Below, one piece after another: positions 9,001 through 62,386 of a stretch of 64,000 bases of DNA (its first letter is position 1; every line of letters begins with the position of its first letter). Where the stretch lies: NCBI GenBank assembly GCA_043797125.1, contig JAZDPX010000014.1, positions 1,755 through 65,754 of the forward strand, in the 5' to 3' direction. The notes beneath the pieces were generated by a model. The model made no database searches, was not told the origin of the DNA, and was given only the letters and a program-made list of their open reading frames with translations. Origin of the DNA: Candidatus Omnitrophota bacterium (GTDB lineage Bacteria > Omnitrophota > Gorgyraeia > JABMRG01 > JAFGKX01). Both the position numbers and the translations under genes were made by a program.

Positions 9001-12000
9001 AATTAACTCTTCTGTTGGCACGGCAGACACTTTCCAAATAGACGGCGTCAAGAATTTAAAAGTGGCTGGCGACTTCTCATTAAATTCAGGAACCTTTAGC
9101 GCTAACGGCCGTAACCAGAACATAGCTGGAGACTTTAGCTTAGCCTTAGGCGCTCTCTACACAAAAGGCGGAACTCTTACCTTTGACGGCGCCACAGCTG
9201 CCAGCTATACAGATTCTACCGTCGGCTTACAGAATGTCGGCGCGGTATCCTTAAATAAGACTGATGCCGGAGATCCTGCTACTAACAATAAATTAACCTT
9301 GCTTAGCAATATGCTCTGCGACAGCTTAACAGTAGACGGCACCGGCGGCTCTGCTGATACTTTAGCTATCGGAGCAAACACCATTACCGCAACCGGAGCT
9401 ACTGATTTAAACGGCACTCTTACCATATCAACCGGCACCTTTAATGCTGACGGCGCGTTTGATGGAACAGGCGGCACAATAACCTTTACCGGCGAAGGCA
9501 ACTTAGTATTATCTTCCACAGTTACTAATGTAGCTTCCAGTCTTACCACTACTATGGGTGAAGTTATCTATGACGGCGCAGCTGCCCAGGATGTAGATAC
9601 GGGTATTACTTATCATGATTTAACCATAGATAATTCCGGCGGATTTATTGCCACCCAGGAAGCAGGAACATTAGATATTAACGGAGACTTCCTAATCAAT
9701 GACTCTAACGCAAAATTTACTGCAGCCAACGCAGGAAACATCGAAGTATACGGAAGTTGGACTAATAACGGCACTTTTACTGCTAATTCCGGCACCGTTA
9801 CTTTGAATGGAACATCGCAAGCCATAAACGGCTCAACCACATTCTATAACTTAACCAAGTCTGTAGCAGCAGCAACTACCCTAACCCTTGATAACACTGC
9901 TACTCAGCTTATTACTCATACTCTCATATTAAACGGAGACGTAGGACAGCTTCTTTCATTAAGAAGTGATTCCACTCCTAATCAATTTAGTATTACCCTG
10001 CAAGCAGGCGGCACGCAGACACTATCTTATCTTGATGTAAAAGATTCCGATGCTTCAGGAGGCTTGACTCTTGCAGCAGGCTCAACCTCTACTAATTCAG
10101 GGAACAACTTAAACTGGAGCTTCCCGATAACCATTACAGGCACTGCTTACCAAGCTAATGGCACAAGCTATCTGGCTAATGGCAAAACCATTGAAATGCG
10201 CGCCTACGACTTAAGTAATAATTTAGTTTCCGGTTATCCTTTAACTGTCGACACTGCAGACGGGTCCGGAGGCTTTACTTTTAGTAACGCTACTGTAGTC
10301 ACCGGCGGAATTTTAGTTTTTCATATTCATGATGAAACTGAAAACGGAAATGTTTATACCATTACCGACGGAAACAGCTTTTCCATGAATCTTCTGCAAA
10401 ATTTCCTGATTATCCGTTCTGATAGCGCCGCAGCCAGCGCGAGCAATTGCATTACCAACGCCAAGTTAGACATATATGATAGAGGCCAGGATACTAACGA
10501 TATGCTATTTACGGTTACTGCCGGAGCCTTGACCATGGATACTTCATCTGTGTTGAGGGTTAGATCCAGCGGCTATTTTACCCCCGGAGGCAATGTTACT
10601 ACCGGCACAACAATTCCTTCTTTGGCATCGGCTGTATACGATCTGGACGGCACCTGGACTGAAACAGCCGGTGACACTTTAACCATACAAAATACCTGTA
10701 CCTTTGACGGCACCTTCACCAAAGCCACCGGCAAGGTAAAATTTAATACCGGCAGCGACACCTCAAGCATAATCGGCGGCACGCAGGATTTTTACGATGT
10801 AGAATTTAATAATCCTACCGGAAGCGAAATTACATTTAGCATTTCAAATACATTAACGGTATACGGGACTCTTACGCAGAGCGGGGCAGGCAACGTAAGG
10901 CTTGTAGGAGGGGCCATAAATGCCAAAGGCGATATTGTTATTGGCAATACTGGCGGGACCGGGGATACCACTGGTTCAACGACAATTAATATTAATGGTA
11001 CAACCGATCAGGAGATCATCAGCACTGTTGGCGTTGGAGAAGGTAAGTTGCCCGCAGTTACTATTAATAAGCCAGGCGACAGCGGTGATTTAACGCTTAC
11101 CGGAATAGTTAACGTTGGCAACAACTTTACCTATACTTCTATGGGTAATGGCCTTTTTGTAACTGATGACAGCACGCTGGCTTTTTGTAATGCTTCTATT
11201 ACTGCTTCCGGAACATTCATCGTGAATAATCTTACTTTTTACAACGGAAGGGCGCCATCTTATACTTTTAACATTGGCACTATTACTGTTAATGGAACAT
11301 TAACTCTCGCAGGCAGCGGCCCGATCGGACTCAATAACGGAACCATTAACGCCAAAGGCAATCTCGCGACAACAAATACAAACACAAACTGCTCCGGCAT
11401 AATGACCATAAATATTAACGGCGATGTCCCGCAGGAATTCAGCGGAAGCGCGACAATGGGCCAGGGCAAGTGGCCGACGATTGTTATAAATAAAACAGAC
11501 ACATTGACGCTTAAGAATATTATTTCGATATATTGGGACTGGACTTATACCGCAGGCACCGTGGACGCCACAACCAACGATTCCACGGTCGCGTTCTATG
11601 AGAGCCATAATTTAGACGGCCAGGGAGCAGGCGGCACCATGGCTTTTGACAATGTTACCATCGCCGGCGGCACCCGTACTTTGACCGGCAATTTAGATGT
11701 TGACGGCAATTTAACAATCAACTCCGGTTGCGCCTTAAGCTCCGGCAATTACGCCATCTCCGTAGGCGGCGACTGGGACAACGACAACGGTGGCACATTT
11801 ACCTCCGGCAATGCCACAGTTACCTTTAACCACGCAAGCGCAGCTACAATTTACACCGGTGGAGTTACAGGTAATTACGACTTCCATCAGAATATAGAAA
11901 TTAACAAGGATGCTTCTACCACAGTAGTGCAATTAAGCGGCAATGGCTTAGACGTAGACGGAACCTTTACCATAACCAAAGGAATCTTTTATCTTAATGG

Positions 12001-15000
12001 CCAGCCTATATCCAGCGGCACTACTCTTAGCGTAACTGACAACGGCACCTTAAGGCTTAACGGTAACGAGGCAATGTCCTGGACCTCTAACAGCACTGCT
12101 ACCGGCACCTGGGAATATGTTGGAGCAGGAGCTGGCCCATATAACATAAAAGACTTTGGAGTTAATGATTATCATAACTTACTTATCAACGCCAGTAATG
12201 GCACCGACGTATTCCAGCTCACAGCAGCTTTAAATGTAGATGGTGACTTAACCATTGATAGCGGTGAATTAAATGTTACTGATACTGATTATCAGATTAA
12301 TGTTGCCGGCAACTGGGAAAACAACGACACCTTTACCGCGGAAGAAGGAGCGGTTGTATTAGACGGCGCAGGCCAATCCATCCTCGGCTCAACCACCTTC
12401 TATGATTTAACCAAGACTGTTACTTCACCTGATATCTTAACCTTCGATAGCACTGGCGAGCAGATAATCACCCACACCTTAACCTTAAATGGAGATACAG
12501 GAGACGGTGACCTGCTCTCAATAGTAAGTGATAACCCCGGCACAAGAGCAGCCCTTACTCTTCAGGCAGGTGGCACACAGAGCTTATCTTACTTAGATGT
12601 TCAGGATTCCGATGCTTCAGCAGGTGAAACCCTAAACGGAGGAGCTACATCTGATAATTCGGGAAACAACTTAAACTGGATTCTTCCTACTGATGTATCC
12701 GGCACAGCCCGCCAGACTGATGAAACAGACCCAATAGCAGGAATAGTTGGCATACTCTTAAAAGTATATGACCCATCCACCGGCTTACAAAGAGGCGGTG
12801 ATTATACTGATGATACTGATAATGATTTAGGCACCTTCACCATGACTAGCGCTTTAATGAAAGATGGGGATATATTAATCATATATATAGACGGCGCCGC
12901 AGAAGACGCCAACACATTCACCATAGCCGATGGTTCTGACATGGCCGGCGTAGACCTTTATGACGACCACTTAGTAATCAGAAATGAAATCGCAGGCAGC
13001 ACCACCCCCATTACCAACACCATTCTTAATTACTGGGACAGCAATGACGACGCTGACATGGTTTTTGCAGTAAATAGCGGCGCTTTAGTTATGTCTACCG
13101 CCAAAGACGCTGAACTCTACATTAACTCCGGCGATTACTTTGCTCCTGGAGGAGATGTTACTACTGCCGACGGAATTCCTTCTGGCCAGCACACCTTAGA
13201 CCTAAACGGTACCTGGACCGAAAGCGGAGCAAGCGCTGAAACCTTAACTATTAAAAACGACTGCGATTTTACCGGCGGCACTTTTACCAGAGGTATTGGG
13301 ACAATAATATTTAGTACCGCTTCGGCTACTTTGGATATTTACGGCGATGATACACAGGATTTTAACAATGTAACATTTTACGGCGGCGCAGCCACTTTTG
13401 CCATAGAAGCTGATACTGTTTTGACAGTTAATGGCACTTTAAAAATTGAAGCCGTTGGAGGCACGGTTTATGTTTATTTACTTACAGGCACCATTAATGC
13501 CAAAGGAGATATTACACTTTTGATCTCTACCGGCTCTACAGACTACCGCACCGTTGAAGGCACGGCTACGATTAATATTAATGGCGCTGGCGACCAGACC
13601 ATCACCGGCCTCTCTTCCAGCGACGGAATTAGTTCTGTCAGCCTTCCCAATGTGAATATCAGTAAAGACACAGGAACTTTATATTTAAAGGATTTTTTCC
13701 GAGTAAGCGGCGATACCTGGACATATACAAAAGGATCTTTAGATGTTACCACATATGATTCCACAGTAGAATTTTTTAGCGGCATGACTATTATAGGCAC
13801 ACATGCTTTGGATAATGTTACCTTTACAGGAAATTCTGTGCCTGATGAAATCGCAGCCGGGACAATATTGACTGTTAATGATGAGCTTACTATCGGCGCC
13901 TTCAACTATGTCTGGATAAATACAGGCACTATTTATGCTAAGGGAAATATTACCCTTAATGGTCTATGTACCAACAACGCTAGCGGCGGTTCAGCTACCA
14001 TTATTATTAATGGCGCAGGCGATCAGTACATAACTGGCACTGATACAGCCGGAACCGGAGGAAGGCTGCCTAATATAGAAATCAGCAAAGATTCCGGAAT
14101 ATTATATTTTGATAATATTATCACTCTTACCAATTATGACGGAAACATAACTTGGACTTATACTAAAGGTACGGTAGATGCTACTACGTATGGCTCAACA
14201 GTGGCATTTTATGATACCACCAACGTGGACGCCGAAGGCATGGCATTTGATAATATTATTATTGGCGGCTACGTAGCTTTAGCCAGCGGTTTAGATGCAG
14301 ACGGCGACTTAACTATAAATTCAGGTAGAACTCTCGACAACTCCGGCAACTACGCCATCTCTGTCGGCGGCGACTGGGATAATGATAATGGCGGGACTTT
14401 TACCTCCGGCAATGCTACCGTAACCTTTGACGGCGCAAGTGCTGCTACCATTTACACCGGCACGACCGGTGCCAATGTAAATGACTTCCAGAATGTAATA
14501 ATTGACAAGGATGCCGATGGCACAGTAGTGCAGCTTTCCGGCAATACCTTTGAAATCGACGGCACCTTAACTATTACTCAAGGCGTACTTTATCTGAATG
14601 GACAGAATATCACCAATTCCACTACGCTCTCTATTGAAAACGCCGGCACCTTAAGATTAATAGGCACTGAATCCGTACCCTGGGCAGCCAATGACTTTGA
14701 CACAGGAACCTGGGAGTTCGTAGGAGCCGGTTCAGGCACCTATGTTATTACCGATTATTATACCCACTACTTTAATTTATTACTTAACTCCGGAGATGGT
14801 ACTGATGAATTCCAGTTAGGCGCAGCTTTAGACGTAGACGGTGATTTAACAATAGAAAGCGGTGAGCTAAATGTAACAGACGCAGATTATCAAATCAACG
14901 TAGCCGGTGACTGGACAAATAACGACACCTTTACCGCAGAAGAAGGAGCTGTAGTATTAGACGGCTTAGGTCAATCAATACTTGGCTCAACTACTTTCTA

Positions 15001-18000
15001 TGATTTAACCAAGACTGTAACAGCAGTAGATACCTTAACCTTTGATAATACCGGCACCCAAATTATTACCCATACTTTAACCTTAACCGGTGATTCAGGC
15101 GACGGAGACCTACTTTCGTTAATAAGTGATTCCAGCCCCAATCAATTCAGCATTACTTTACAGGCAGGAGGCGCTCAAGTCTTATCTTATCTTGATGTTA
15201 AAGATTCCGATGCTTCAGGCGGAGTATGTTTAGCCGCAGGCGCAAACTCAACTAATTCCGGAAACAATTTAAACTGGAGTTTCCCGGTGAATATTACCGG
15301 CACTGCCTATCAAACCAACGAAAGCTCGTTTTTAGCCAATGGTATAGACATTACCTTAATGGCCTATGATGTAAACGGCGTGTTGCTTTCCGGCTATCCG
15401 CAGACTGTGCAAACCGCAGGCGGCCTCGGTGGTTTTACTTTTAGCGGAGTTCCTTTAGCAGTCGGCGGCAGCTATGTGGTTTATATAAACGGCGCAGGAA
15501 CAGGGGAGACTGGAAACACCATCGGTACTACTGACGCCAGCGCTATTAATCTCTCGGTGATGGATGACCATATTATTATTCGCACCGACCACGCAAGCGC
15601 CACTGCTTCAAGCTACGCAGTTACAAACAGTATCCTTTCGCGTTTTGATAATGATGATGACACTGATATGCTTTATACGGTAGCAGCCGGCGATTTAACT
15701 GTAGAAGACGGCGTAGAGCTATACATCAACACCGGCGACTTCTTTACTCCCGCAGGAAATGTTACTACCGGCACCGACCCCACTAACCAGGAATCCTTAG
15801 ACCTAAACGGCACCTGGACTGAAACCGGCACCGAGACCTTAACCATTAACGGCGACTTTGATTCTACGGGAGGAACTTTTACCAGAGCCAGCGGGACGGT
15901 AAAATTTAACAACGTCTCCTGCAGCATTACCGGCTCGCAGGATTTTAATAATGTGGAGTTTTACGCTGATACAAGCTCTAAAACTTTTACCATTTCTGGC
16001 GGAACTATTCTAACGGTTAATGGAACACTTACCCTTAGTGGGGCAACGGGTATTACCTTAAACACCGGAGATATTTACACCAAAGGGAATATTAGTATTA
16101 CTAATAATTCATCTTCAGGTGGCGGTTCAGCTACTATTACTATAAATGGCAGTAGCACTCAAACCATTACTGGCGTTGGTACCACTAATTATCTACCCAA
16201 AGTTACCATTAATAAGTCTGGTAATAGTGGCGATCTTGTTCTTTCTGGCGTAATCAGGGTTGGCAATGATCTTACTTTTACTACTATTGGCAATGGCTTG
16301 TTTACTACTGCTGGCTCTACTGTGTGTTTTTACAGCGGCATTTCTGGAGAAACTTTTGACATTTCCGGTATTTTTACTCTGAATAATGTTTATTTTGGCT
16401 ACACTGTTGATAGTTCAGTTTCTTATGTTATTAATGATACCTTGACTATTGCTGGGACACTATATTTACAAGGAACCCTAAACCTTATCATTAATACTGG
16501 TACCATCAACACCCAAGGTAATATCACTATTAGCAATACCAGTACCACCGGAGGCGGAACAGCCACTATCAACATTAATGGCACCGGCAGCCAAACTTTA
16601 GACGGCCCAGCTACAGCAGGACAGGGGAAGCTTCCCAATGTTACCATTGAAAAAGACTCCGGCACTCTCTACTTAAGAGACATCATCTCCGTCGCCGGCG
16701 ACTGGACTTATACAAAAGGCACAATAGATATCGCTACCTACGACAACACCGTAGCCTTCTACGGCACGCATAACTTAGACGGCCAGGGCACAGTAGATAC
16801 CATGGCCTTTAAGAATGTTACCTTTGCCGGAGTAACTACACTCACCGGTAACTTAGATGTAAATAACGACTTAACCATTGATAGCGGCTGTTCATTAGAT
16901 ACCAGCGCTACGGATTATTCTATCAACGTAGGCGGAGACTGGATAAACAATGCCGGAGCTGTTGGTTTTACTGCCAATGAAAGCTTAGTAACCTTAGACG
17001 GCTTATCCCAAGCCTTCACCGGCTCAACTACCTTCTACGATTTAAGTAAAGTAGTAACAGCAGCTGACACTTTAACCTTTGACAATACTGCTACCCAGCT
17101 TATCACTCATACCTTAACCTTAAAAGGCGAGTCAGGAAAACTGCTTTCCTTAAGAAGCGACTCTAACGGCGTGCAATACACCCTTACCTTACAAGCAGGC
17201 GGCACCCAGGACTTAGCTTACTTAGATGTTAAAGACTCTGATGCTTCAAGTGGGTTAGTATTGGTAGGAGGGGCTACTTCAACTAATTCCGGAAACAATT
17301 TAAACTGGAGCTTCGCTATAACCATAACAGGCACTGCATACCAGACCAATGAAACCTCATTCTTAGCAAATGGCATTAATATCACATTAATGGCTTATGA
17401 CGTAAACGGTAACTTAGTTAGCGGCTATCCGCAGACCGTGCAAACCGCAGGCGGCAGCGGTGGCTTTACTTTTAGCAATATTGCTTTAGTCTCCGGAGGA
17501 AGTTATGTAGTCTATATCAACGACTCCGGAACAGGCGAAACCGGAAACACCGTTGGCACTACTGATGCCAGCGCTATTAATCTCTCGGTGATGGACGATC
17601 ATATTATTATTCGCACCGACCACGCAAGCGCCACTGCCTCAAGTTATGCGGTCAGCAACTCCATTTTAAGCCGCTTTGACAATGATGATGACGCTGATAT
17701 GCTCTACACTGTTGCCGCAGGTGTCCTCACTGTGGAAAACGGCGCTGAACTCTACATCAACACTGGCGACTTCTTTACTCCAGCAGGAAATGTAAATACC
17801 GGCACAGACCCCACAAATCAAGCATCCTTAGACCTCAACGGCACCTGGACTGAAACCGGCACCGAGACCTTAACCATAAACGGAGACTTTGATTCAACTG
17901 GCGGCACCTTCACTCGTGCATCAGGCACAGTAAAATTCAATAACTTCACCGGCAGCATCACTGGCTCGCAGGATTTTAATAATGTGGAGTTTACGGCGAG

Positions 18001-19918
18001 TAGTGCCTTTAAGACCTTTACTATTTCCGCTGGCACCATACTTACCGTCAACGGTACGTTGACCGAAAGTGGGACAGCCGCTATATTTTTAAACACCGGC
18101 GATATCTATGCAAAAGGGAATATTACTGTTACTAATACTACAACCTGGGGTGGTGGGTCAGCCACTATTACTATTAACGGAAGCAGCACCCAAACCATTG
18201 AGTATGTTGCTGGTGCCAATAATAGACTCCCAAAAGTTACCATCAATAAACCGGGTGATAGCGGCGACCTTATTATTTCTGGTGGCATTTCTGTTGCTAA
18301 TGATTTTACTTTTACCACTATCGGCAATGGTTCTTTTACCACTGCTGATTCCAAGGTAAATTTTTATGAAGGCGCTTCCGGAGAAACTTTTGATATATCT
18401 GGTACATTTGGTTTAAATAATGTCCAGTTTGGCGCATGGAGTTATACCCCCACTTTTATTATTAGTGGCACCTTGACGCTTACTGGATATTTATCGATAA
18501 GTACGACTACTGGAATTACCTTTAATGTCAATGATACCATCAATGTCTCTGGTTATTTCGAGTTGGGTGGGACCAAAACAATTACTGTTAATACCGGTAC
18601 CATCAATGCAGGTGGGGCTATTTTTCTTACTAACACTGATACTTCCGGCGGAGGCACTGCTACGGTCAACATTAATGGTGCAGGTAGTCAGACCCTGAGG
18701 GGTTATGGTGTCGCCGGTCAAGGCAGGCTTCCCAATGTTAAGGTAGAAAAAGATGGTGGTACGCTTTACTTAAGAGACACCATCTCCGTTGCCGGCGACT
18801 GGACTTATGTTAAAGGAACAATAGATATCACTACCAATGACTCTACAGTAGTATTTTATGGAACTCACAATTTAGACGGTCAGGGCTCGAGCGCGACTAT
18901 GACTTTTGATAATGTTACCTTTGCCGGCGCAACTACCTTAACCGGAAACTTAAATGTTGGCAGTAACTTCTCAACCAATTCCGGTACACTTGATATAGCA
19001 ACCTACACCGCAACTGTCAGCGGCGCAACCGACTTAAATGATACCTTAACCATTTCTACCGGCACCTTTAACGCAGACGGCGCATTTGACGGAACCGGCG
19101 CCACCATTACCTTTACCGGCGAAGGAAACTTAGTCCTATCTTCAACCGTTACTGCCGTAGCCGCTAATCTTACCAATACCATGGGCGAAGTTATTTATGA
19201 CGCAGCAGCCGATCAAACCATAGACACGGGCATTACTTATCATGATTTGACCATAAACAACTCAGGCATAGCAATAGCTACTCAAGAAGCAGGCACATTA
19301 AACATTGCCGGCAACTGGACTAATAACGGCATCTTCAATGCTAATAATGGCACAGTTGCTTTTACGGATATTTCACAAGCAAGCACAATAGCAGGTAATA
19401 CTACATTCTATAATTTTGTTTGCGAAACAGCGGGAAAGACCCTGACATTTACCGCCGGCACAGAGCAAATTGTTACAAATGACTTAACCATAAAAGGCGC
19501 AATTGGTAACACCGTTACCATAAATGACACAGGCGCAGGCGCAACACCGAAGCTTAGCCTGCAAGCAGGCAAGACCCAGGATATTGAAAACGTAGATGTA
19601 ACCAACAATGACGCTTCAAGCGGACAACAGCTTATCGCGGATGGCGCATCAACCTTAAACGGTATCACCACAAATTGGTTGTTGGCCAGCGGCGTTGTTC
19701 CTCCAGCTACAACAACCACAGTTGACCTAACCAATATTTTAATAATACAGGGCGCCTGCGGCATGTACGGCAATTACTTTATGCTTCAGCCAAAAGCAAA
19801 ACCCACCATATGGGAAATGCGCGTTCAGCGCATGCTGCTTGAAAGATGGTTCTCTTTAGCAGATCTTCAGTATTTAGGCCTTACTATTCATCCTGCCTTT
19901 AAACCGAAGAAGAAATAA
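68..19918 (+). CDS. Giant repetitive surface-type protein, at least 6,616 aa. N-terminal ~300 aa unknown domain, ~9 SBBP-like beta-propeller repeats, Cna-B/CarbopepD_reg-like domain, then 6-7 long beta-helix-like tandem modules. Probably 5'-partial in this window.
   Basis: Single uninterrupted ORF. Frame is also open from nt 2 to 67 (IDPDFQGTIQSLTIDGYSGDIA), resembling internal repeat ends (ALVIDPTL), but AGGTGA lies 8 nt upstream of ATG68, so the start is ambiguous. Repeated YSTYLGGxxxDxGxGIAVDSSGCAYVTG...DAFVTKFN units and recurring STTFYDLTKTV...LQAGGTQxLxYLDVxDSDASxG...SGNNLNWSF submodules; Thr/Gly/Asn/Asp-rich. Confidence 0.85.
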   Translation: MQRTLTINGNLSFLGNSYISFDNPALAPSSQERFKISLKGDLIIDNTNAWVYAAISLCSSQDQNLRILKGTVYGAITIDKASGRVIFGDFDLTKLPLYFVPNQGQVPDSQVKFYVSSGNRLMYFTPTGICYLFSQTDPDTGVKTWVPVNLSFLDASGNAVISPELLTGALFSYFLGNDLAQYHAGLPSYYKITYTGLYPGITLSISSQQSNLKTEYVVAPGIDYCQIKLSYENITSLEIDSEGNLIIRTSVAELTELKPYVYQYIDGVKVVIDAEFEILSANSYGFKLGAYNQDYALVIDPTLWLTYSTYLGGSSQDYGRAIAVDSSGCAYVTGSTQSADFPTSNAYQGSSGGSDDAFVTKFNSAGSALVYSTYLGGSDNDAGYGIAVDSSGCAYITGNTSSTDFPLQNAFQSSKSTGSDAFVTKFNSAGSALTYSTYLGGTGSGDYGKGIAVDTSSCAYVTGYTDSTDFPLQSAFQGTKGAGYDVFVTKFNAAGSALTYSTYLGGNNNDFGRSIAVDSSGCAYVTGEARSTDFPMQSAYQGTHGGGLWDAFVTKFNAAGSTLAYSTYLGGSGGDYGYGIKVDSSGFAYVTGSTISTNFPTQDPYQGANAGNSDAFLTKFNAAGSALVYSTYLGGAVNDYGRSIAIDPSGCAYVTGETSSSADFPTQDPYQGSYGGSTWDAFITKFNSGASALVYSTYLGGTAADYGTGIAVDSAYIAYVAGYTASTDFPTESPYQGSNGGNGYNDAFVAKLNFGISVSGTVYTNEGKTANVSSGVTIGLSVHGLTKTTNTTDANGAFTFYSVPVDADNTITLFVDDNGSYEANLVSQAADGTSAISVEMYTNKIVLRYESAGPMTNTLLNRADNSGDDDIHYTFSGSDITFDTGYEVWIDSGKTYTPGAAVSVDSLENNGTFNPEANAITVRGSWDNDGTFTSSGTVSFTTASSATIDTGGVGASCDFENLTVDKSGGILQLTGNHLEVDTTLTITAGTLDMNGKNITEADTISVTGTLKLQGSETTSVAPTNNAGSTIEYSATTAIKDWTYKSIKLNGSGAVFTLPGDITANENFEITLGEFQQGANKNLTVKGDFTIAAANATFTKGTGTSKLILDGSGTTPTFYGPTTPQNLGVVQIGASPGDVYLNADFMADSITVDAGDVFYTMGYEVDAGSGGITLVTGAPGGEIDTTDQDAAGYEKDGTIITCAGAFTINAGAVFTKCSTASYESLVKMDGGGAANFKSSSQDIGNFQISTANSNITLQDALNADDITIDGSTTLTAGANAVNCAGDWDNSGSFSSSAAVTLDGTAQSILGSTTFYDLTKTVVLADTLTFDSAGEQIITHDLTLNGADTELLSIVSNNPGTRAALTLQAGGTQDLQYLDVQDSDASAGLTLAGGATSTNSGNNLNWSFPIDIDGIAYAADEAATLGNGIDIILRAYDLSGNLLAGYPQTATIAGGLGEFSFSGVTVVAGGALVFYIDSTDTGGNAGNTYTITDATDIADMQIFYSHLNVRDDTAYVTKIPVTNTILNYYDNGSDSANMIFNVNAGAMTMENISELKIDSTGSFAPGGDVTTGITVADAGSDNLVFNLDGAWTESGASAETLTIKKHSDFSGSFTKGIGTVVFSNATQTINGTQEFNNVTFTYNGTGAAAYFTINNTLTVTGTLKFAGTYGVSLSTGTINAEGNIEITNTSTRNPEGTATIKINGDGNQIITGSPAADQGQFPGKMYISKDSGDLTLTDGTFIRIGSDWTFDKMLNDGQLIVTGSTVVFYSNLTITATVAGDHGLNNVTFATSTGADYYQPEIAAGTILTVEGNLFFDGPRQVRLNTGTIWVYGDVTTDIADDDGGGSALIVFKGANPQKLTGSGAAGTGKLCDIEIAKTNGTFTLESIICVDGHWTFTSIGAGSIVNTDSTVIFYGNHNVTCEGDITMAFNNVTVAGNTRTLTGDLDVDGALIIDSGCSLNNAGNHAINVGGNWDNDNGGTFTSGNATVTFDGPSAATIYTGGAGANFDFNNVIIDKDADGTVVQISGNLWEIDGTLTITQGVLYLNGQSITNSTGLSIEDAGTLRLNGSENIPWAANDINTGTWEYIGAGAGPYNIKDFGADDYHNLTINATNDSDIFQLTAALKVYGDLTIDGGELNVTDTDYQINVAGNWENNDTFTPEEGTVILDGSGQSILGSTTFYDLTKTVTAVDTLTFDSAGEQIITHTLTLTGDVGDGDLLSLVSSTPGTRAALTLQAGGTQVLSYLNVQDSDASGGLTLAGGATSTNSGNNLNWSFPIDIDGIAYEADEAATLGNGIDILLRAYDLSGNLLAGYPQTATITDGLGGFSFNGVTAVAGGVLVFYIDSTDTGGIAGNTFTITDATDIIDMEAFYRHLNIRDDTAYVTKIPVTNTILNYYDNGSDSANMIFNVNAGAMTMEATTELKIDSTGTFAPGGDVTTGTTVPDDLIFNLDGTWTESGASAETLTIKNDCDFTGGTFTRGIGTVKFTTSGTDITGSQEFYNLSFIAPNAVYAIEALTELTVHGTLTIQATHASNAYILLNGGTINAKRDITLSVTTPGAASNLGPCTATVNINGTVDQTITGTSVGDDSVGVALPNVNISKDPGSTLFLKDYIAFCATSWTYTKGTIDIATYDSTVRFHDADMTISGSLILDNVWFSARNSDTFEIVNTLTVNNLTISGFSGSPTLNTGTINVKGDIDLSGGGSGGGGTATIKINGLNIQTITGSGTANYGKLPNLTIEKLDDTGNLVLSSIISIAGNWIFNTIGANDTVVNTGSTVVFYGNKNLDGEGDITMAFNNVIFGASGGGTRILIGDLDVDGDLTINGSSILDNNTSGTFDISVGGDWSNSYRFISGAGTVTFDGGTSATLNSGGTGQYFDFNDIIVAKTGAAVLQLSGNTLEIDGTLTINDGVIDLNGQTITNSTSLSIEDAGTLRLIGTETIPWAANDIDTGTWEYIGGGSTTYTLKDFGADGGNDYYNLIINSSVGTADTFQIDGVKNLKVAGDFSLNSGTFSANGRNQNIAGDFSLALGALYTKGGTLTFDGATAASYTDSTVGLQNVGAVSLNKTDAGDPATNNKLTLLSNMLCDSLTVDGTGGSADTLAIGANTITATGATDLNGTLTISTGTFNADGAFDGTGGTITFTGEGNLVLSSTVTNVASSLTTTMGEVIYDGAAAQDVDTGITYHDLTIDNSGGFIATQEAGTLDINGDFLINDSNAKFTAANAGNIEVYGSWTNNGTFTANSGTVTLNGTSQAINGSTTFYNLTKSVAAATTLTLDNTATQLITHTLILNGDVGQLLSLRSDSTPNQFSITLQAGGTQTLSYLDVKDSDASGGLTLAAGSTSTNSGNNLNWSFPITITGTAYQANGTSYLANGKTIEMRAYDLSNNLVSGYPLTVDTADGSGGFTFSNATVVTGGILVFHIHDETENGNVYTITDGNSFSMNLLQNFLIIRSDSAAASASNCITNAKLDIYDRGQDTNDMLFTVTAGALTMDTSSVLRVRSSGYFTPGGNVTTGTTIPSLASAVYDLDGTWTETAGDTLTIQNTCTFDGTFTKATGKVKFNTGSDTSSIIGGTQDFYDVEFNNPTGSEITFSISNTLTVYGTLTQSGAGNVRLVGGAINAKGDIVIGNTGGTGDTTGSTTININGTTDQEIISTVGVGEGKLPAVTINKPGDSGDLTLTGIVNVGNNFTYTSMGNGLFVTDDSTLAFCNASITASGTFIVNNLTFYNGRAPSYTFNIGTITVNGTLTLAGSGPIGLNNGTINAKGNLATTNTNTNCSGIMTININGDVPQEFSGSATMGQGKWPTIVINKTDTLTLKNIISIYWDWTYTAGTVDATTNDSTVAFYESHNLDGQGAGGTMAFDNVTIAGGTRTLTGNLDVDGNLTINSGCALSSGNYAISVGGDWDNDNGGTFTSGNATVTFNHASAATIYTGGVTGNYDFHQNIEINKDASTTVVQLSGNGLDVDGTFTITKGIFYLNGQPISSGTTLSVTDNGTLRLNGNEAMSWTSNSTATGTWEYVGAGAGPYNIKDFGVNDYHNLLINASNGTDVFQLTAALNVDGDLTIDSGELNVTDTDYQINVAGNWENNDTFTAEEGAVVLDGAGQSILGSTTFYDLTKTVTSPDILTFDSTGEQIITHTLTLNGDTGDGDLLSIVSDNPGTRAALTLQAGGTQSLSYLDVQDSDASAGETLNGGATSDNSGNNLNWILPTDVSGTARQTDETDPIAGIVGILLKVYDPSTGLQRGGDYTDDTDNDLGTFTMTSALMKDGDILIIYIDGAAEDANTFTIADGSDMAGVDLYDDHLVIRNEIAGSTTPITNTILNYWDSNDDADMVFAVNSGALVMSTAKDAELYINSGDYFAPGGDVTTADGIPSGQHTLDLNGTWTESGASAETLTIKNDCDFTGGTFTRGIGTIIFSTASATLDIYGDDTQDFNNVTFYGGAATFAIEADTVLTVNGTLKIEAVGGTVYVYLLTGTINAKGDITLLISTGSTDYRTVEGTATININGAGDQTITGLSSSDGISSVSLPNVNISKDTGTLYLKDFFRVSGDTWTYTKGSLDVTTYDSTVEFFSGMTIIGTHALDNVTFTGNSVPDEIAAGTILTVNDELTIGAFNYVWINTGTIYAKGNITLNGLCTNNASGGSATIIINGAGDQYITGTDTAGTGGRLPNIEISKDSGILYFDNIITLTNYDGNITWTYTKGTVDATTYGSTVAFYDTTNVDAEGMAFDNIIIGGYVALASGLDADGDLTINSGRTLDNSGNYAISVGGDWDNDNGGTFTSGNATVTFDGASAATIYTGTTGANVNDFQNVIIDKDADGTVVQLSGNTFEIDGTLTITQGVLYLNGQNITNSTTLSIENAGTLRLIGTESVPWAANDFDTGTWEFVGAGSGTYVITDYYTHYFNLLLNSGDGTDEFQLGAALDVDGDLTIESGELNVTDADYQINVAGDWTNNDTFTAEEGAVVLDGLGQSILGSTTFYDLTKTVTAVDTLTFDNTGTQIITHTLTLTGDSGDGDLLSLISDSSPNQFSITLQAGGAQVLSYLDVKDSDASGGVCLAAGANSTNSGNNLNWSFPVNITGTAYQTNESSFLANGIDITLMAYDVNGVLLSGYPQTVQTAGGLGGFTFSGVPLAVGGSYVVYINGAGTGETGNTIGTTDASAINLSVMDDHIIIRTDHASATASSYAVTNSILSRFDNDDDTDMLYTVAAGDLTVEDGVELYINTGDFFTPAGNVTTGTDPTNQESLDLNGTWTETGTETLTINGDFDSTGGTFTRASGTVKFNNVSCSITGSQDFNNVEFYADTSSKTFTISGGTILTVNGTLTLSGATGITLNTGDIYTKGNISITNNSSSGGGSATITINGSSTQTITGVGTTNYLPKVTINKSGNSGDLVLSGVIRVGNDLTFTTIGNGLFTTAGSTVCFYSGISGETFDISGIFTLNNVYFGYTVDSSVSYVINDTLTIAGTLYLQGTLNLIINTGTINTQGNITISNTSTTGGGTATININGTGSQTLDGPATAGQGKLPNVTIEKDSGTLYLRDIISVAGDWTYTKGTIDIATYDNTVAFYGTHNLDGQGTVDTMAFKNVTFAGVTTLTGNLDVNNDLTIDSGCSLDTSATDYSINVGGDWINNAGAVGFTANESLVTLDGLSQAFTGSTTFYDLSKVVTAADTLTFDNTATQLITHTLTLKGESGKLLSLRSDSNGVQYTLTLQAGGTQDLAYLDVKDSDASSGLVLVGGATSTNSGNNLNWSFAITITGTAYQTNETSFLANGINITLMAYDVNGNLVSGYPQTVQTAGGSGGFTFSNIALVSGGSYVVYINDSGTGETGNTVGTTDASAINLSVMDDHIIIRTDHASATASSYAVSNSILSRFDNDDDADMLYTVAAGVLTVENGAELYINTGDFFTPAGNVNTGTDPTNQASLDLNGTWTETGTETLTINGDFDSTGGTFTRASGTVKFNNFTGSITGSQDFNNVEFTASSAFKTFTISAGTILTVNGTLTESGTAAIFLNTGDIYAKGNITVTNTTTWGGGSATITINGSSTQTIEYVAGANNRLPKVTINKPGDSGDLIISGGISVANDFTFTTIGNGSFTTADSKVNFYEGASGETFDISGTFGLNNVQFGAWSYTPTFIISGTLTLTGYLSISTTTGITFNVNDTINVSGYFELGGTKTITVNTGTINAGGAIFLTNTDTSGGGTATVNINGAGSQTLRGYGVAGQGRLPNVKVEKDGGTLYLRDTISVAGDWTYVKGTIDITTNDSTVVFYGTHNLDGQGSSATMTFDNVTFAGATTLTGNLNVGSNFSTNSGTLDIATYTATVSGATDLNDTLTISTGTFNADGAFDGTGATITFTGEGNLVLSSTVTAVAANLTNTMGEVIYDAAADQTIDTGITYHDLTINNSGIAIATQEAGTLNIAGNWTNNGIFNANNGTVAFTDISQASTIAGNTTFYNFVCETAGKTLTFTAGTEQIVTNDLTIKGAIGNTVTINDTGAGATPKLSLQAGKTQDIENVDVTNNDASSGQQLIADGASTLNGITTNWLLASGVVPPATTTTVDLTNILIIQGACGMYGNYFMLQPKAKPTIWEMRVQRMLLERWFSLADLQYLGLTIHPAFKPKKK
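985..2335 (+). repeat. ~9 tandem SBBP-type (beta-propeller) repeats of ~50 aa within the giant ORF
   Basis: Repeating YSTYLGG(S/T)xxDxGxGIAVDSSGCAYVTGxTxSxDFPxxxAYQGxxGGxxDAFVTKFNxAGSAL. Confidence 0.7.
2750..19700 (+). repeat. 6-7 long (~670-1080 aa) tandem modules within the giant ORF, some pairs ~90-95% identical at nt level
   Basis: GNNLNW motif DNA (AACTTAAACTGG) recurs near 4266, 6868, 10103, 12665, 15262 and 17292, with a degenerate 7th copy near 19400-19690. Near-identical nt stretches, e.g. 6571-6700 vs 14961-15090 and 15545-15660 vs 17565-17680. Confidence 0.75.
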
Positions 19919-27297: not shown

Positions 27298-28671
27298 ATG
27301 CTGAAAAGTTTCCAAAATAAGGCAAAGGTTATTTTTGTCTTTGTGGTAGTTTTTTTTGCCTATAGCCGTGCCTTTTGCGCTCAAGAAGTGGACCAGACGC
27401 CAACTTTTTTAGAGACGATAAAGCGCGCATTCGGTATCGGCCATATAGTAGAATATTACGAGCAGAAAAAAATACTGTCAAAAGAGAGCTCTTCCTATGC
27501 CCACTATATAATGGGCATAGTATATGCCAATCAGAACCAGCTGGAAGAGGCAAAGCAAGAGCTTTTACAGGCTAAAGAATTAGCCCCCAGGGAAACAGAC
27601 ATATATCTTAAACTGGCTGCCGTATGCATACGGCAGGACCAGACTGACGAGGCAATAGGGTATATTGATGAAATAAAAAAAATAGACCCAAGCGATATAA
27701 GGGCCGCTTTTTTGCAGGGCCTGCTTTATATATCTAAAAAAGACTGGACAAAGGCGACGGATGAATACGAGAAAATCGTTAAGACGTATCCGCATAATAT
27801 AGCCGCCCTTTCGTCTTTGGCCGATATTTACATAATCGGCGATAAACTCGAAGAGGCAATCAGCGTATACGAAAAATTAATTGAAGAAAAACCCGAAGTG
27901 CCCCAGCTTTATTTTAACCTGGGCATAATTTATATAAAATTAGGAAAGCTTGATAAGGCCATAGAAGTATTTAAGCAGGCAACAAAGGCGGATACATCCT
28001 ATACAGACGCTTATATATTTTCCTCAGGGCTTTTGATTGAGGCAGGCAAGGCCAGCGAGGCAATAGCTTTTATTAACGAAGGCATTGATGCAAACCCTGA
28101 AGATACGCGCCTTTTGTTTTTTCTGGGAAGCTGCCTTTATGAAACGAAAGATTATTCAGAGGCGCTAAAGCCTTATAACAAAATATTGAAACTGCAGCCT
28201 GATAACGCGGATGCGTATTTTTATTTAGGCGTTATTTACGACAAGGCCAAAGACAGGCCCGCTGTTAAGGAAAACATGCGCAAGGTAATTGAGCTTGAGC
28301 CTGATAATGACGCGGCATTGAATTATTTAGGCTATACGTACGCGGAAGACTCTGAAAACTTAGACCAGGCAATAAAACTTATAAAAAAGGCCCTTAAGAT
28401 ATCGCCTAATAACGGGGCTTATATTGACAGCTTGGGCTGGGCGTATTATAAAAAGGGCCAGAAGGAAAAGGCCGTTAGTCTCCTTGAAAAAGCAGCCGGC
28501 ATTTACGGCGATGACCCTGTAATATACGACCATTTAGGTGACGCCTATTACAGCCTGGATAAAACAAGCGAAGCAAATGAAGCGTGGGAAAGATCATTAA
28601 AGATAGACCCGCAACAACAGAGCGTAAAGGAAAAAATTTCACAACATAAGACTAAAAAGGAAAAACAATGA
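27298..28671 (+). CDS. Secreted TPR-repeat protein
   Basis: N-terminal hydrophobic signal (VIFVFVVVFFAYSRAFCAQE) and multiple 34-aa TPR-like repeats (AxxYLKLA, AYFYLGVIY, ALNYLGYTY). Confidence 0.8.
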   Translation: MLKSFQNKAKVIFVFVVVFFAYSRAFCAQEVDQTPTFLETIKRAFGIGHIVEYYEQKKILSKESSSYAHYIMGIVYANQNQLEEAKQELLQAKELAPRETDIYLKLAAVCIRQDQTDEAIGYIDEIKKIDPSDIRAAFLQGLLYISKKDWTKATDEYEKIVKTYPHNIAALSSLADIYIIGDKLEEAISVYEKLIEEKPEVPQLYFNLGIIYIKLGKLDKAIEVFKQATKADTSYTDAYIFSSGLLIEAGKASEAIAFINEGIDANPEDTRLLFFLGSCLYETKDYSEALKPYNKILKLQPDNADAYFYLGVIYDKAKDRPAVKENMRKVIELEPDNDAALNYLGYTYAEDSENLDQAIKLIKKALKISPNNGAYIDSLGWAYYKKGQKEKAVSLLEKAAGIYGDDPVIYDHLGDAYYSLDKTSEANEAWERSLKIDPQQQSVKEKISQHKTKKEKQ

Positions 28672-33969: not shown

Positions 33970-34422
33970 ATGGAGATTACAGAGGTAAAAATTTTCTTAA
34001 AGGATTCCGTGGATAAAAAGCTTAAAGGCTTTGCGACAATAACCTTTGATAACGCGTTTGTTGTGAGAAATGTGAAGCTTATCGAAGGCAGCAAAGGGCT
34101 TTTTGTCGCCATGCCTTCGCGCAAAATGAGACAGTCCTGCCCTAAATGCGGATTTAAAAATGCCATAAGGAGCAGATTCTGCAATCAGTGCGGAGCAGCA
34201 ATAGACGCACCGCCGCCGCAGGAAAGGATAGATCCTGCCGATAAATCAGCCCGTCAATCAGAGCACAGGGACATAGCGCATCCTATAACCTCGGAATTCA
34301 GAGAGTACATCCAGAAAAAGGTTATAGAGGCATATGATAAAGAAAAGACAATGCCGCCGGTCTCAAGAACCGCGCCTCGTTCGCAAGATGTGCATCATGA
34401 TTTGGAAGACGATATAGATTAG
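33970..34422 (+). CDS. spoVG: SpoVG-family protein carrying an inserted C4 zinc-ribbon and an acidic C-terminal tail
   Basis: MEITEVKIFLKD...ATITFDNAFVVRNVKLIEGSKGLFVAMPSRK then CPKCG...CNQCG insertion, then SpoVG core HRDIAHPITSEFREYIQKKV. Confidence 0.75.
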   Translation: MEITEVKIFLKDSVDKKLKGFATITFDNAFVVRNVKLIEGSKGLFVAMPSRKMRQSCPKCGFKNAIRSRFCNQCGAAIDAPPPQERIDPADKSARQSEHRDIAHPITSEFREYIQKKVIEAYDKEKTMPPVSRTAPRSQDVHHDLEDDID

Positions 34423-34430
34423 AATTTTTT

Positions 34431-34521
34431 TGGCGGATTGTGTAACGGTAGCACAACGGCCTTTGGAGCCGTTTGCGGTGGTTCGAATCCCTGCCTGCCG
34501 GCAGGCAGGCACCTCCGCCAG
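34431..34521 (+). tRNA. tRNA-Gln(UUG)-like gene interrupted by a perfect 20-nt palindrome in the T-arm (no encoded CCA); possible pseudogene or unusual tRNA
   Basis: Sequence collinear with the downstream tRNA-Gln except the insertion CCTGCCTGCCGGCAGGCAGG (about 34490-34510) between GGTTCGAATC and CACCTCCGCCAG. Anticodon loop CTTTGGA gives UUG. Confidence 0.6.
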
Positions 34522-34588
34522 TTGTGCATCAAACTATTTTGAAATTTTTAGAAGAAAACCGCGCTAATAAATAAAATATTTTGTTTAT

Positions 34589-34662
34589 TGGCGGATGGTG
34601 TAACGGTAGCACAACGGCCTTTGGAGTCGTTTGCGGTGGTTCGAATCCACCTCCGCCAGCCA
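34589..34662 (+). tRNA. tRNA-Gln (anticodon UUG), CCA encoded
   Basis: TGGCGGA acceptor, anticodon stem ACGGC/GTCGT, loop CTTTGGA, T-arm GGTGGTTCGAATCCACC, 3' CCA. Confidence 0.85.
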
Positions 34663-34677
34663 ATATTAGGAAAAATA

Positions 34678-35919
34678 ATGCAGAAGTGTTCGTTTTGTTC
34701 AAGAGATAAGACAAAGGTCAACAAGCTTTTTAGCGGCCCCGGAGCATATATTTGCGATCATTGCGTAAAACTTTGCACCCAGATTTTAGCAAAAGAGCAG
34801 CGCGACACAAAAGCGCCTGAACCATTTTTACTGAAAGAGACGCCAAAGCCGACCGCCATTAAAAAGAAATTAGACGAGTATGTTATCGGCCAGGAACGCG
34901 CAAAAAGGCAGCTTTCCGTAGCCGTTTATAACCACTATAAAAGGATTACATCCAAAGAATCAACGCCTGATTTAGACGATGTAGAGCTGGAAAAGTCAAA
35001 CGTCCTTCTGATAGGCCCAACAGGAAGCGGGAAAACTCTGCTTGCCAGGACCCTTGCGCGTATCCTTGAAGTGCCGTTTGCGATATGCGATGCTACGCCT
35101 CTTACCGAAGCAGGTTATGTCGGAGAGGATGTGGAAAATGTGCTTTTGAGGCTTTTACAGAGCTGTGATTACGATACGAATAAAGCGCGTTACGGTATAG
35201 TTTATATTGATGAAATAGATAAAATCGGAAAGACCCATGACAACGTTTCTATTACAAGAGATGTTTCCGGAGAAGGAGTGCAGCAGGCGCTCTTAAAGAT
35301 ATTGGAAGGCACCGTTGCCAATGTGCCGCCTAAAGGCGGCAGGAAACACCCGCATGAAGAATATATAAAAGTAGACACAACAGATATATTATTTATATGC
35401 GGCGGGTCTTTTAACGGCTTGGATAGAATCATAAAGAAAAGGCTTGGTAAACAGTCAATAGGTTTTCATGCCGGCTTAAGCCAGTACAAGGAAAAGGCTC
35501 TCGGAGAAATCTTAAGCCACGTTGAGCCGGAGGACCTGCTTAAATTCGGGATGATACCGGAATTTATCGGCCGGTTTTCCACCATATCGACCCTTTATCC
35601 TTTAGACAAAGATGATTTAATCAGGATCTTAGTCGAACCAAAAAATTGCCTTACAAAACAGTACAAGAAATTTTTCGCAATGGACGGCGTAAAGCTGCAA
35701 TTTGAAGAAGCGGCATTGAAAGAAATAGCGGAAATGGCCCATAAAAAACAGACAGGCGCAAGGGCCCTTCGCTCGATTTTAGAAGAGATAATGCTTGAGA
35801 CGATGTATGAGATGCCTTCGCACGAAGATGTTGCTGCGTGTGTCGTTGATAAAGACAGCGTTATTAGTAAAAGCAGGCCGAAACTTGTGCTTAAGAAAGG
35901 CGTAAAGAAAGTGGCTTAA
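34678..35919 (+). CDS. clpX: ATP-dependent Clp protease ATP-binding subunit ClpX
   Basis: N-terminal zinc-binding CSFCSRD...CDHC, Walker A GPTGSGKT. True start is MQKCSFC at 34678, after the tRNA; the track ORF from 34588 overlaps the tRNA. Confidence 0.9.
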
Positions 35920-42642: not shown

Positions 42643-42674
42643 GACGTAGCGCAGGCTTAAGCCTGCGCTACGTC
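42643..42674. repeat. Perfect 14-bp GC-rich palindrome with TTAA loop downstream of dnaB; member of a small palindromic element family with the element at 50951-50988
   Basis: gacgtagcgcaggc-TTAA-gcctgcgctacgtc, no trailing T-tract. Shares CGTAGCG..CTTAAG..CGCTACG with the glnA/lpxB hairpin. Confidence 0.6.
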
Positions 42675-50950: not shown

Positions 50951-50992
50951 ACAACCGTAGCGGAGCCTTAAGGCTCCGCTACGGTTGTTTTT
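50951..50992 (+). terminator. Rho-independent terminator after glnA (perfect 17-bp stem, TTAA loop, T5 tract); overlaps the 3' end of convergent lpxB
   Basis: acaaccgtagcggagcc-TTAA-ggctccgctacggttgt-TTTT. Confidence 0.7.
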
Positions 50993-58248: not shown

Positions 58249-58328
58249 CTAAAAGTCCGCCTGCGGGCGAGACAGGTCCGCCTTGCGGCGAGAGACAGGC
58301 TTGCCTACCGGCAGGCAGGGAGGAAAAC

Positions 58329-61949: not shown

Positions 61950-61969
61950 TCTCTTTTCGCTTGATAGCA

Positions 61970-62386
61970 ATGAAAAACTATGAATTTTTAGAACATACTG
62001 CCGATTTTGGTATTAGAGTCTGGGGCAAAACACAAACAGAACTTTTCACTAATGCAGCAACTGGTATGTTCGAATACATTACAGATATATCCAAAGTTAA
62101 GCCAACCAAGACCATTGCCATGGAATTAGAATCAGATGACAGAAATGGGCTTCTGAAGGACTGGCTTTCTGAATTGCTTTATTACTGTAATGTTAAAAAC
62201 ATGCTTTTTTGCGAGTTTAAAATAGATGCAATAGACGATAAACGTATAGAATGCGAGCTTAAAGGCGAGCGAATAGATAAAAGCACATACAAATTGAATC
62301 ATGAAGTAAAGGCAGTGACCTTTCATAATTTGAATATAGAAGAAAAAGAAGGGCTATTGACGACCGAGATAATATTTGATGTATAG
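61970..62386 (+). CDS. Archease (RtcB activator)
   Basis: MKNYEFLEHTADFGIRVWGKTQTELF is the canonical archease N-terminus. Start set at 61970 (the track ORF has a 22-aa upstream extension). Confidence 0.8.
   Translation: MKNYEFLEHTADFGIRVWGKTQTELFTNAATGMFEYITDISKVKPTKTIAMELESDDRNGLLKDWLSELLYYCNVKNMLFCEFKIDAIDDKRIECELKGERIDKSTYKLNHEVKAVTFHNLNIEEKEGLLTTEIIFDV

Follow-up and report, generated by a model that had tools for sequence, protein, structure and literature searches.

The tRNA-Gln locus analyzed here raises the question of why two almost identical tRNA-Gln(UUG) genes should stand side by side in a bacterial genome, the first of them interrupted by a perfect palindrome. The locus lies between spoVG and clpX in a stretch of 64,000 nucleotides (nt) from Candidatus Omnitrophota contig JAZDPX010000014.1, and this whole stretch is referred to as the window. 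We consider it probable that the tandem is a remnant, now without its open reading frame (ORF), of a selfish nuclease cassette that targets tRNA genes, with the interrupted copy 1 being a pseudogene and the intact copy 2 the working gene. The duplication and the 20-bp palindrome (PAL) appear to be parts of a single architecture that recurs around a small GIY-YIG gene, and the feature in the window is read here as a decayed member of what is apparently an undescribed homing-cassette variant.

An interrupted tRNA-Gln gene beside an intact copy

An initial annotation of the window had described two tRNA-Gln(UUG) copies lying 67 nt apart between spoVG and clpX and differing by two substitutions and one insertion, and both statements held when coordinates, gene translations, and an alignment over nt 1–73 were examined. 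Copy 1 (34431–34521, + strand), with the spoVG stop codon 8 nt upstream, comprises segment A (34431–34489), corresponding to nt 1–61 of the tRNA, the perfect self-complementary 20-mer CCTGCCTGCCGGCAGGCAGG (PAL, 34490–34509), located in the 3′ strand of the T-stem as had been reported, and segment B′ (CACCTCCGCCAG, 34510–34521), corresponding to nt 62–73 and ending at the discriminator base. The insertion point falls between nt 61 and 62 or between nt 62 and 63, 1–2 nt from the T-loop, and is ambiguous because the next base is also C. An AT-rich spacer of 67 nt (34522–34588, + strand) occupies the position of the ORF in the complete GIY-YIG cassettes described below, and is followed by copy 2 (34589–34662, + strand), an intact tRNA-Gln(UUG) with encoded CCA. 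Apart from the insert, the copies are distinguished by T9 in copy 1 vs G9 in copy 2 and by C39 vs T39, the latter producing an anticodon-stem G-C pair in copy 1 vs G-U in copy 2 (GCCGT vs GTCGT), so the better-paired anticodon stem attributed to copy 1 is real. The sequences 5′ of the two copies are unrelated apart from T-richness, and no promoter or terminator consensus was found around the two tRNAs.

Judged by a full Rfam tRNA (RF00005) cloverleaf scoring above the gathering threshold together with an encoded CCA, copy 2 qualifies as a functional tRNA gene and copy 1 does not. Copy 2, rightly described before as canonical, is called by ARAGORN and scores 63.3 bits over the full model, vs 33.1 bits for copy 1, whose match extends only over 34431–34501 and takes half of PAL as a false 3′ end, such that the true 3′ strand falls beyond the match and PAL bases replace the T-stem and the acceptor 3′ strand. 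ARAGORN, a check that the initial annotation had proposed, calls copy 1 only with this same false 3′ end (34431–34502). Directly 3′ of copy 1 stands TTG and not CCA, which is encoded both by copy 2 and by the tRNA-Lys gene of the window. Copy 1 has undamaged acceptor, D, and anticodon arms. In its predicted RNA fold, the acceptor and anticodon arms are kept, the T-arm is broken, and PAL forms an extra closed hairpin, which in both the minimum-free-energy and centroid structures has 8 bp and a 4-nt loop and is free of bulges at the base. With its broken T-arm, the missing CCA, and an intact copy beside it, copy 1 is best read as a pseudogene, one of the alternatives originally listed. No Rfam families besides tRNA were detected in the window.

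Ancestral state of the tandem

The locus was compared with those of four relatives whose SpoVG proteins are 69%–80% identical. The order spoVG–tRNA-Gln–clpX was found in three of them (L001/L003, L004, and L006), where the tRNA starts 1–16 nt past spoVG. All four relatives have a single uninterrupted tRNA-Gln(UUG) that carries CCA, and all four share the bases of copy 1 (T9 and C39) at both sites that distinguish the two copies. Because the relatives match copy 1 at both sites, it is the interrupted copy that has the ancestral bases, and, as reconstructed from this alignment, copy 1 is in the ancestral place with the ancestral sequence while copy 2 is derived. Had a plain duplication been followed by decay of the spare copy, the reverse pattern would be expected.

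A different arrangement was observed in L007 (SpoVG 80% identical), where an ORF of 240 amino acids (aa; 717–1439) lies between spoVG and tRNA-Gln, ends 7 nt upstream of the tRNA, and has a weak match to LAGLIDADG_3 (E = 1.5e-4). It would be a different nuclease-like gene at a similar site.

A recurrent GIY-YIG cassette at tRNA genes

The genome-wide search for the 20-mer that had been called for was carried out over 185,579 species-representative genomes (596 Gb) with a degenerate pattern permitting the observed transitions, and PAL-family matches were located in at least 120 genome stretches, which represent many phyla. Among the matches listed, 127 PAL sites were read, 75 of which are the exact 20-mer, compared with a chance expectation in 596 Gb of ~0.5 exact 20-mers and ~10–20 matches to the degenerate pattern. 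Hosts of PAL include Patescibacteria, Bacteroidota, Omnitrophota, Planctomycetota, Nitrospirota, Chloroflexota, Bdellovibrionota, and Gammaproteobacteria, with cultured isolates (including Bacteroidota) represented by Winogradskyella, Olivibacter, Flagellimonas, and Terrimonas. On viral contigs, PAL is present in 35 stretches, with up to six copies on one contig (29.5 kb). This occurrence across phyla and on viral contigs supports the earlier suggestion of a small palindromic element, in that the 20-mer belongs to a dispersed family of such elements.

Several PALs in this PAL-first sample interrupt a partial tRNA copy, and the same tRNA follows immediately downstream as an intact copy. Some of these fragments have no GIY-YIG ORF beside them, namely tRNA-Val nt 1–45 in L056, tRNA-Leu nt 1–20 in L013 (an Omnitrophota genome), which lies 8 nt before the intact gene, and a tRNA-Leu fragment in L010. 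Four loci (L066, L109, L036, and L159) have an ORF of 77–84 aa between the fragment and the intact tRNA, and in L068 the ORF is cut down to its last ~35 codons. This ORF encodes a GIY-YIG catalytic domain (PF01541), and its nearest solved relatives are UPF0213 proteins (1ywl and 1zg2), with the structure-specific nuclease SLX1 next. When 1702 ORFs from 120 loci were clustered all-vs-all, no recurrent neighbor protein of PAL emerged other than this one.

An independent sample was obtained by aligning four of these PAL-first ORFs with one another and scanning metagenome contigs for their relatives, with information on PAL and tRNAs left unused. Relatives numbered at least 492, and a set of 80 loci was retained (L163–L242), from which, together with L036, L066, L109, and L159, we define the class of PAL-marked GIY-YIG tRNA cassettes. 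A tRNA gene adjoins the ORF in 72 of the 80 loci, the other eight being mostly cut contigs; in 59 it is on the same strand and starts −10 to +150 nt from the stop codon (mostly 0–25 nt), and in 13 it lies just upstream of the ORF (the mirror type). A displaced 5′ fragment of the same tRNA, with at least one insert, is found upstream of the ORF in 52 of the 59 loci, and the insert is PAL-like in 48 (the exact 20-mer in 19). These fragments start at tRNA nt 1, with similarity reaching at most 7 nt upstream in 44 of 48 loci. PAL is positioned after nt 9, 14/15, 20–23 (mode 22), 31/32, 39, 49, or 54/55, and is followed by 6–29 nt of tRNA sequence, a spacer of 0–20 nt, ATG, the ORF, and the intact tRNA. 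In the mirror type (13 loci), the intact tRNA comes first, then the ORF, and then the displaced 3′ fragment with PAL in the T-loop. PAL was never found in the intact tRNA of an ORF-first cassette and always in the displaced copy. Cassettes target mainly tRNA-Leu and tRNA-Arg, in addition to Lys, Gly, Phe, Asn, Met, Ser, and Gln(CUG), and full cassettes include near-complete displaced copies whose inserts fall in the T-arm or anticodon arm, at nt 49 (L195), nt 54 (L228), nt 55 (L207), and nt 39 (L181). The cassette has representatives in Patescibacteria, Bacteroidota, Omnitrophota, Planctomycetota, and Proteobacteria, as well as on viral contigs.

Mapped onto the tRNA structures given by ARAGORN, 37 of 74 inserts lie exactly at a helix end vs 12.4 expected and 12 of 74 within a stem vs 35.7 expected; because inserts are not independent events, the helix-end count is taken as a trend and not as a probability. 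The class protein is ~80 aa long and has a conserved REKYLKSGxG motif. Among 17 cassettes with the exact 20-mer, the ORFs are a median of 55% identical (range 38%–100%) and the tRNA targets differ, and a PAL identical across such diverged ORFs therefore points to constraint or regeneration. Variants of PAL look like decay products or have paired changes, and G-T and A-C mismatches on the sense strand are balanced (7 vs 6), thus giving no sign of RNA-strand selection on the hairpin. We infer that PAL is a constrained or regenerated cassette element at the DNA level, being neither a passenger nor mainly an RNA hairpin. The architecture and its recurrence, and the placement and conservation of PAL, are features of the aligned sequences themselves, as is the ancestral state of copy 1.

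Some tRNA loci depart from this layout. A viral contig (L152, 2239–2330) has a full-length tRNA-Met(CAT) with PAL in the variable loop, which ARAGORN calls as a tRNA of 92 nt and where PAL may be tolerated as a long variable arm; a second tRNA-Met copy is not visible on this 4.3-kb contig, and a related contig (L129, 8520–8760) has the same insert plus a T-arm deletion. In L159 (viral, ~835–1000), the tRNA downstream of the GIY-YIG ORF is interrupted in the anticodon loop by a sequence beginning GTGCCGAGGGCAAAGCCCGAGG, which could be a group I intron, and ARAGORN calls no tRNA there. Other GC-rich hairpins were observed at the tRNA positions of PAL in displaced fragments (L068 ~880–915, L228, and L164), including CCCGCCCGTACCGAACGGGTACGTTCGGGCGGG in the D-loop, CGCGCCAGAGGCGCA and CTCGCCTCCGGCGAG in a tRNA-Gln(CUG) fragment, and TCCGCCTTCGGCGGA replacing the anticodon arm, while TCCGCCAGCTGGCGGA also occurs near PAL in L023 and L033. 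The niche offered by displaced fragments may be common to several palindrome families.

PAL outside tRNA genes

Flanking sequences of PAL are unrelated between loci and its 20-nt borders are sharp, with T avoided at −1 and A avoided at +1 and no conservation further out. The palindrome does not extend into its flanks (−1/+1 complementarity of 0.29). Across 120 sites, there was no excess of 5–10 bp flanking direct repeats over nearby controls that would indicate target-site duplication, and a small excess at 7 bp reflects local tandem repeats. A miniature inverted-repeat transposable element (MITE) was accordingly rejected as a candidate, there being no target-site duplication of fixed length flanking PAL at these 120 sites. 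Within the same loci, 7-base flanking repeats are ~5 times commoner near PAL than far from it, and many solo PALs lie in tandem repeats of 7–8 nt (ttcagcg/ttaagcg/ttccgcg; ctaacct three times), as in L117, L049, L126, L106, L096, L087, L128, and L151. These short repeats recall the heptamer repeats of cyanobacteria.

PAL is nested in another PAL, after position 9 or 11, in L030, L037, L043, L075, and L081, and lies in frame within hsdS in L105 and parB in L085. The L105 ORF (2790–4895), which is HsdS-like (type I restriction specificity), carries an in-frame PAL at ~3861 (PACRQAG) together with a GIY-YIG domain, and the cassette is therefore not restricted to tRNA genes. No significant preference for hairpin loops was found overall (Mann-Whitney p = 0.33); ~10% of PAL sites lie in loops of stems ≥6 bp, part of them PALs nested in PAL, and stems ≥7 bp surround 8.3% of sites vs 1.1% of controls. 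A duplicated empty site was detected near PAL at 19 of the 164 PAL-first sites, mostly in tRNA cases and nested PALs.

Assignment of the window locus

The tandem in the window shares with the class an exact PAL present only in the upstream copy, a displaced copy starting at nt 1, an intact copy downstream on the same strand, and a stretch of tRNA sequence after PAL (12 nt) that is within the range of the class (6–29 nt). An ORF of ~80 aa encoding a GIY-YIG domain is absent from between the copies, where there are only 67 nt, and because relatives without an ORF or with a truncated one exist (L056, L013, L010, and L068), the locus is filed as a decayed derivative and not as a complete member. 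The nuclease ORF would have been lost, leaving the 67-nt spacer.

Several observations weigh against this assignment and against the cassette model behind it. No remnant of a GIY-YIG gene was found in the spacer by a hidden Markov model of ~80 cassette ORFs run with filters off, nor a GIY-YIG gene anywhere in the window, so the argument for a cassette origin here is one from architecture; the final 15 nt of the spacer (AAATATTTTGTTTAT) agree with the usual ORF start (ATGTATTTTGTTTAT) at 13 of 15 positions, a resemblance too weak to be given weight. PAL in the window lies 1–2 nt inside the T-stem and not exactly at a helix end. The cassette counts are not independent, many loci being related by descent, and the ancestral-state argument depends on two bases and on relatives with SpoVG only 69%–80% identical. 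About 145 of the 164 PAL-first sites have no duplicated empty site nearby, and PAL may therefore also spread alone. The viral tRNA-Met of L152 means that a PAL-bearing tRNA is not necessarily dead. Cutting of tRNA genes or of PAL by the nuclease is a prediction from sequence, and under simple sequence-specific homing the intact tRNA of the donor would also be a target, an escape that the model leaves unexplained.

It is conceivable that PAL is instead an autonomous miniature palindromic repeat, similar to REP or MITE elements, which inserted by chance into an unrelated, pre-existing tRNA-Gln tandem and was tolerated thanks to the second copy. Such an element would account for the many solo copies with unrelated flanks and no duplication nearby, for the nested PALs, for the subset enriched in loops of stems ≥7 bp, and for a spacer without any ORF remnant. 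It fits poorly, however, with the near-universal pairing of PAL with a displaced tRNA copy (48 of 59 loci) and its absence from intact copies, and copy 1, which stops at nt 73 without CCA or shared flanks, resembles a cassette fragment rather than the product of plain tandem duplication. The ancestral bases of the pseudogene and derived bases of the working copy, in addition to the absence of target-site duplications and of terminal inverted repeats apart from the palindrome itself, count against it further, and we regard this explanation as unlikely.

Much less probable still is that copy 1 is a functional tRNA, with the hairpin either an intron whose flanks are rejoined by RtcB and archease or a tolerated extra arm. 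The two genes are indeed encoded ~27 kb downstream, as noted at the outset (archease at 61904–62386 and RtcB at 62376–63830), copy 1 retains intact acceptor, D, and anticodon arms with an anticodon stem better paired than that of copy 2, and the viral tRNA-Met with PAL in its variable loop is still called by ARAGORN. Yet the same 20-mer interrupts tRNA fragments of 20–45 nt that are unable to function and occurs at non-tRNA sites and inside ORFs, and in copy 1 it forms a closed perfect hairpin without the 3-nt bulges flanking a 4-bp helix that define the bulge-helix-bulge motif. The insert breaks the conserved T-stem beside the G53-C61 pair and is not conserved in relatives, CCA is missing from copy 1, unlike from copy 2, tRNA-Lys, and all orthologues, and an intact copy is adjacent. 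The presence of RtcB and archease is not diagnostic, and their distance of 27 kb without linkage agrees with the original remark that nothing connects them functionally with the tandem, while the intron or extra-arm alternative offered alongside it finds no support. An assembly or library artifact is scarcely credible: perfect palindromes can come from chimeric reads and the source is a metagenome-assembled genome (MAG), but the same 20-mer, together with nested copies and natural-looking point variants, is present away from contig ends in hundreds of assemblies that differ in laboratory, assembler, and platform, cultured isolates included, and in consistent placement relative to tRNA fragments and a specific gene. 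CCTGCCTGCCGGCAGGCAGG is not known to match any sequencing adaptor.

Proposed mechanism of spread

How the cassette moves and what PAL does can only be inferred from the layouts described above. The cassette may spread in the style of a homing element, via break-and-repair or recombination guided by tRNA homology, and a DNA of the form A–PAL–B′–ORF that recombined within segment A of a host tRNA would yield the observed layout. Such recombination would explain the foreign-looking 5′ part of copy 2, which probably arrived with the cassette. The boundary of the duplication at tRNA nt 1 coincides with the start of the sequence conserved between unrelated hosts, and is consistent with homology-guided transfer. 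The intact tRNA copy would keep the host supplied with tRNA, and the ORF could be transcribed from the tRNA promoter and freed by the RNase P cut at the intact tRNA.

The nuclease, being SLX1-like and without a DNA-binding domain, might act on DNA hairpins or cruciforms formed by tRNA arms and PAL, or alternatively might bind PAL as a dimer. Proposed roles of PAL are that of a nuclease binding or cleavage site, an autoregulatory site, or a spacer breaking the direct repeat; as a breaker of homology between the copies, it would prevent loss of the cassette by recombination. Solo PALs could be footprints of lost cassettes or copies spread in trans. A broader proposal, which we put forward as possible but rather doubtful, is that PAL and the ~80-aa UPF0213/SLX1-like GIY-YIG protein constitute a two-part mobile system spreading between phyla, in which the nuclease would recognize PAL or extruded tRNA/PAL hairpins and cut at helix ends, repair would place the cassette in tRNA genes and duplicate the target so that a working tRNA is retained, and hundreds of solo PALs would be seeded or left behind.

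Comparison with known systems

Phage T4 SegB, encoded in a tRNA gene cluster, cuts DNA of the tRNA genes in a related phage, and repair of the break allows its gene to spread (PMC2330249). Like SegB, as a case of free-standing GIY-YIG homing genes, the cassette places a GIY-YIG gene among tRNA genes and is seemingly selfish while leaving the tRNA supply of the host unharmed. Unlike SegB, the cassette protein is only ~80 aa long, consisting of a UPF0213/SLX1-like catalytic domain to which no DNA-binding domain is attached, part of the target tRNA is present twice with an invariant 20-bp palindrome in the displaced copy, the cassette is chromosomal and found across phyla, and its cleavage activity is presumed. 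In invasions of fungal mitochondrial genes by homing endonuclease genes, a nuclease ORF enters an essential gene, brings a replacement segment with it, and leaves a partial pseudogene beside the functional gene. The target duplication and the partial pseudogene copy of the cassette look similar; these invasions differ in concerning protein-coding organelle genes and LAGLIDADG or long GIY-YIG enzymes, and are not known to involve a conserved palindrome.

REPs are species-specific, imperfect palindromes that bear a 5′ GTAG and need an HUH/Y1 enzyme. PAL resembles the REP/REPIN-RAYT system (PMC8049555) in consisting of short GC-rich palindromes that are mainly intergenic, in having many solo copies per coding gene, and in a suspected reliance on one trans-acting nuclease. 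Unlike REPs, PAL keeps one and the same 20-mer from phylum to phylum, forms a perfect palindrome, and is associated with a GIY-YIG gene and with fragments of tRNAs. ORF clustering of the 120 loci revealed no RAYT-like gene that recurs beside PAL, and REP/REPIN-RAYT was rejected as a candidate, since PAL is perfect, lacks GTAG, and has no recurrent neighbor in those loci except GIY-YIG. A further possible analogy is with the mobile GC-rich palindromes of fungal and algal mitochondria, which spread in AT-rich DNA, often by tRNA genes, and are sometimes nested; they differ in being organellar and lineage-specific with no defined partner gene (PMC7218506, PMC4524435). Copy 1 is reminiscent of archaeal bulge-helix-bulge tRNA introns, with a short insert outside the anticodon loop and RtcB and archease in the genome, but differs in lacking bulge-helix-bulge geometry, in its bacterial host, in the occurrence of the insert in dead fragments and at non-tRNA sites, and in having an intact copy alongside. 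We found no published description of the 20-mer or of this cassette architecture in the open-access literature, an absence that is not proof.

Implications

For annotation, copy 1 should be labeled a pseudogene, and PAL-bearing tRNA fragments are a recognizable source of false or odd tRNA calls in MAGs. The cassette is a compact selfish element in which the cis-element is more conserved than its protein, and it points to a function that could be tested for the UPF0213 GIY-YIG family, members of which have solved structures and no known role. It would also represent a way to invade essential genes harmlessly, by rebuilding the target, and a possible origin of the GC-rich palindromes scattered in AT-rich genomes. 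A two-part system, if true, would provide a role for a large protein family and an example of a homing-like element made harmless without an intron or intein, and the combination of a 20-bp site and an 80-aa nuclease would deserve attention as a minimal pair for DNA recognition.

Other palindromes and genes in the window

A related imperfect copy of the palindrome had also been reported in the window; it exists as CTTGCCTACCGGCAGGCAGG, with two mismatches, although at 58300–58319 and not at ~58295–58314. It lies between genes, 9 nt upstream of the ATG at 58329, and in tandem with two degenerate GC-rich hairpin units, GTCCGCCTGCGGGCGAGACAG and GTCCGCCTTGCGGCGAGAGACAG (58250–58299), such that three GC-rich hairpin units fill 58250–58328 between an ORF for a LysW-like zinc ribbon and the ORF at 58329. 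The two degenerate units tentatively resemble decayed cassette PAL variants such as GCCCGCCTGCCGGCGAGGCAG in L167. None of 100 shuffles of the window gave any PAL match at ≤3 mismatches, and chance would account for neither of the two sites. Together with its degenerate hairpins, the second PAL-family site shows, to judge from these repeats, that the genome has been visited more than once. The 3′ end of this variant runs into GGAGG 9 nt before the ATG, which may serve as a ribosome-binding site.

Two long perfect palindromes, GACGTAGCGCAGGCTTAAGCCTGCGCTACGTC (42643–42674, 32 nt) and ACAACCGTAGCGGAGCCTTAAGGCTCCGCTACGGTTGT (50951–50988, 38 nt), have the frame CGTAGCG...CTTAAG...CGCTACG in common and differ by paired changes. 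One is flanked by genes on the same strand and the other by convergent genes, and the two could represent bidirectional terminators or a second family of palindromes. Inside the ORF at 27298–28671 lies a perfect palindrome of 20 nt, CTGCCGTATGCATACGGCAG (27617–27636), which reads ...LAAVCIRQ... in frame, the chance expectation for perfect palindromes of this length being ~0.06 per window.

The upstream neighbor of the tandem, spoVG (33970–34422, + strand), was identified by its translation, which has a 100% match to the NCBI entry "septation protein SpoVG family, Candidatus Omnitrophota" and belongs to Pfam PF04026. SpoVG in this Omnitrophota clade (the window and relatives P0002–P0120) has a C-terminal extension with a CxxC...CxxC zinc-ribbon signature, for which Pfam zinc-ribbon matches were obtained in many homologues. 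The downstream neighbor, clpX (34678–35919, + strand), was identified by its translation and by Pfam zf-C4_ClpX/AAA_2 matches on orthologues in L001–L007. The first 20 kb of the window are filled by a single ORF of 6616 aa (68–19918, + strand), and at its end (~20000) GC skew changes from negative to positive and AT skew also rises, which could be a composition effect of the giant ORF or a replication landmark.

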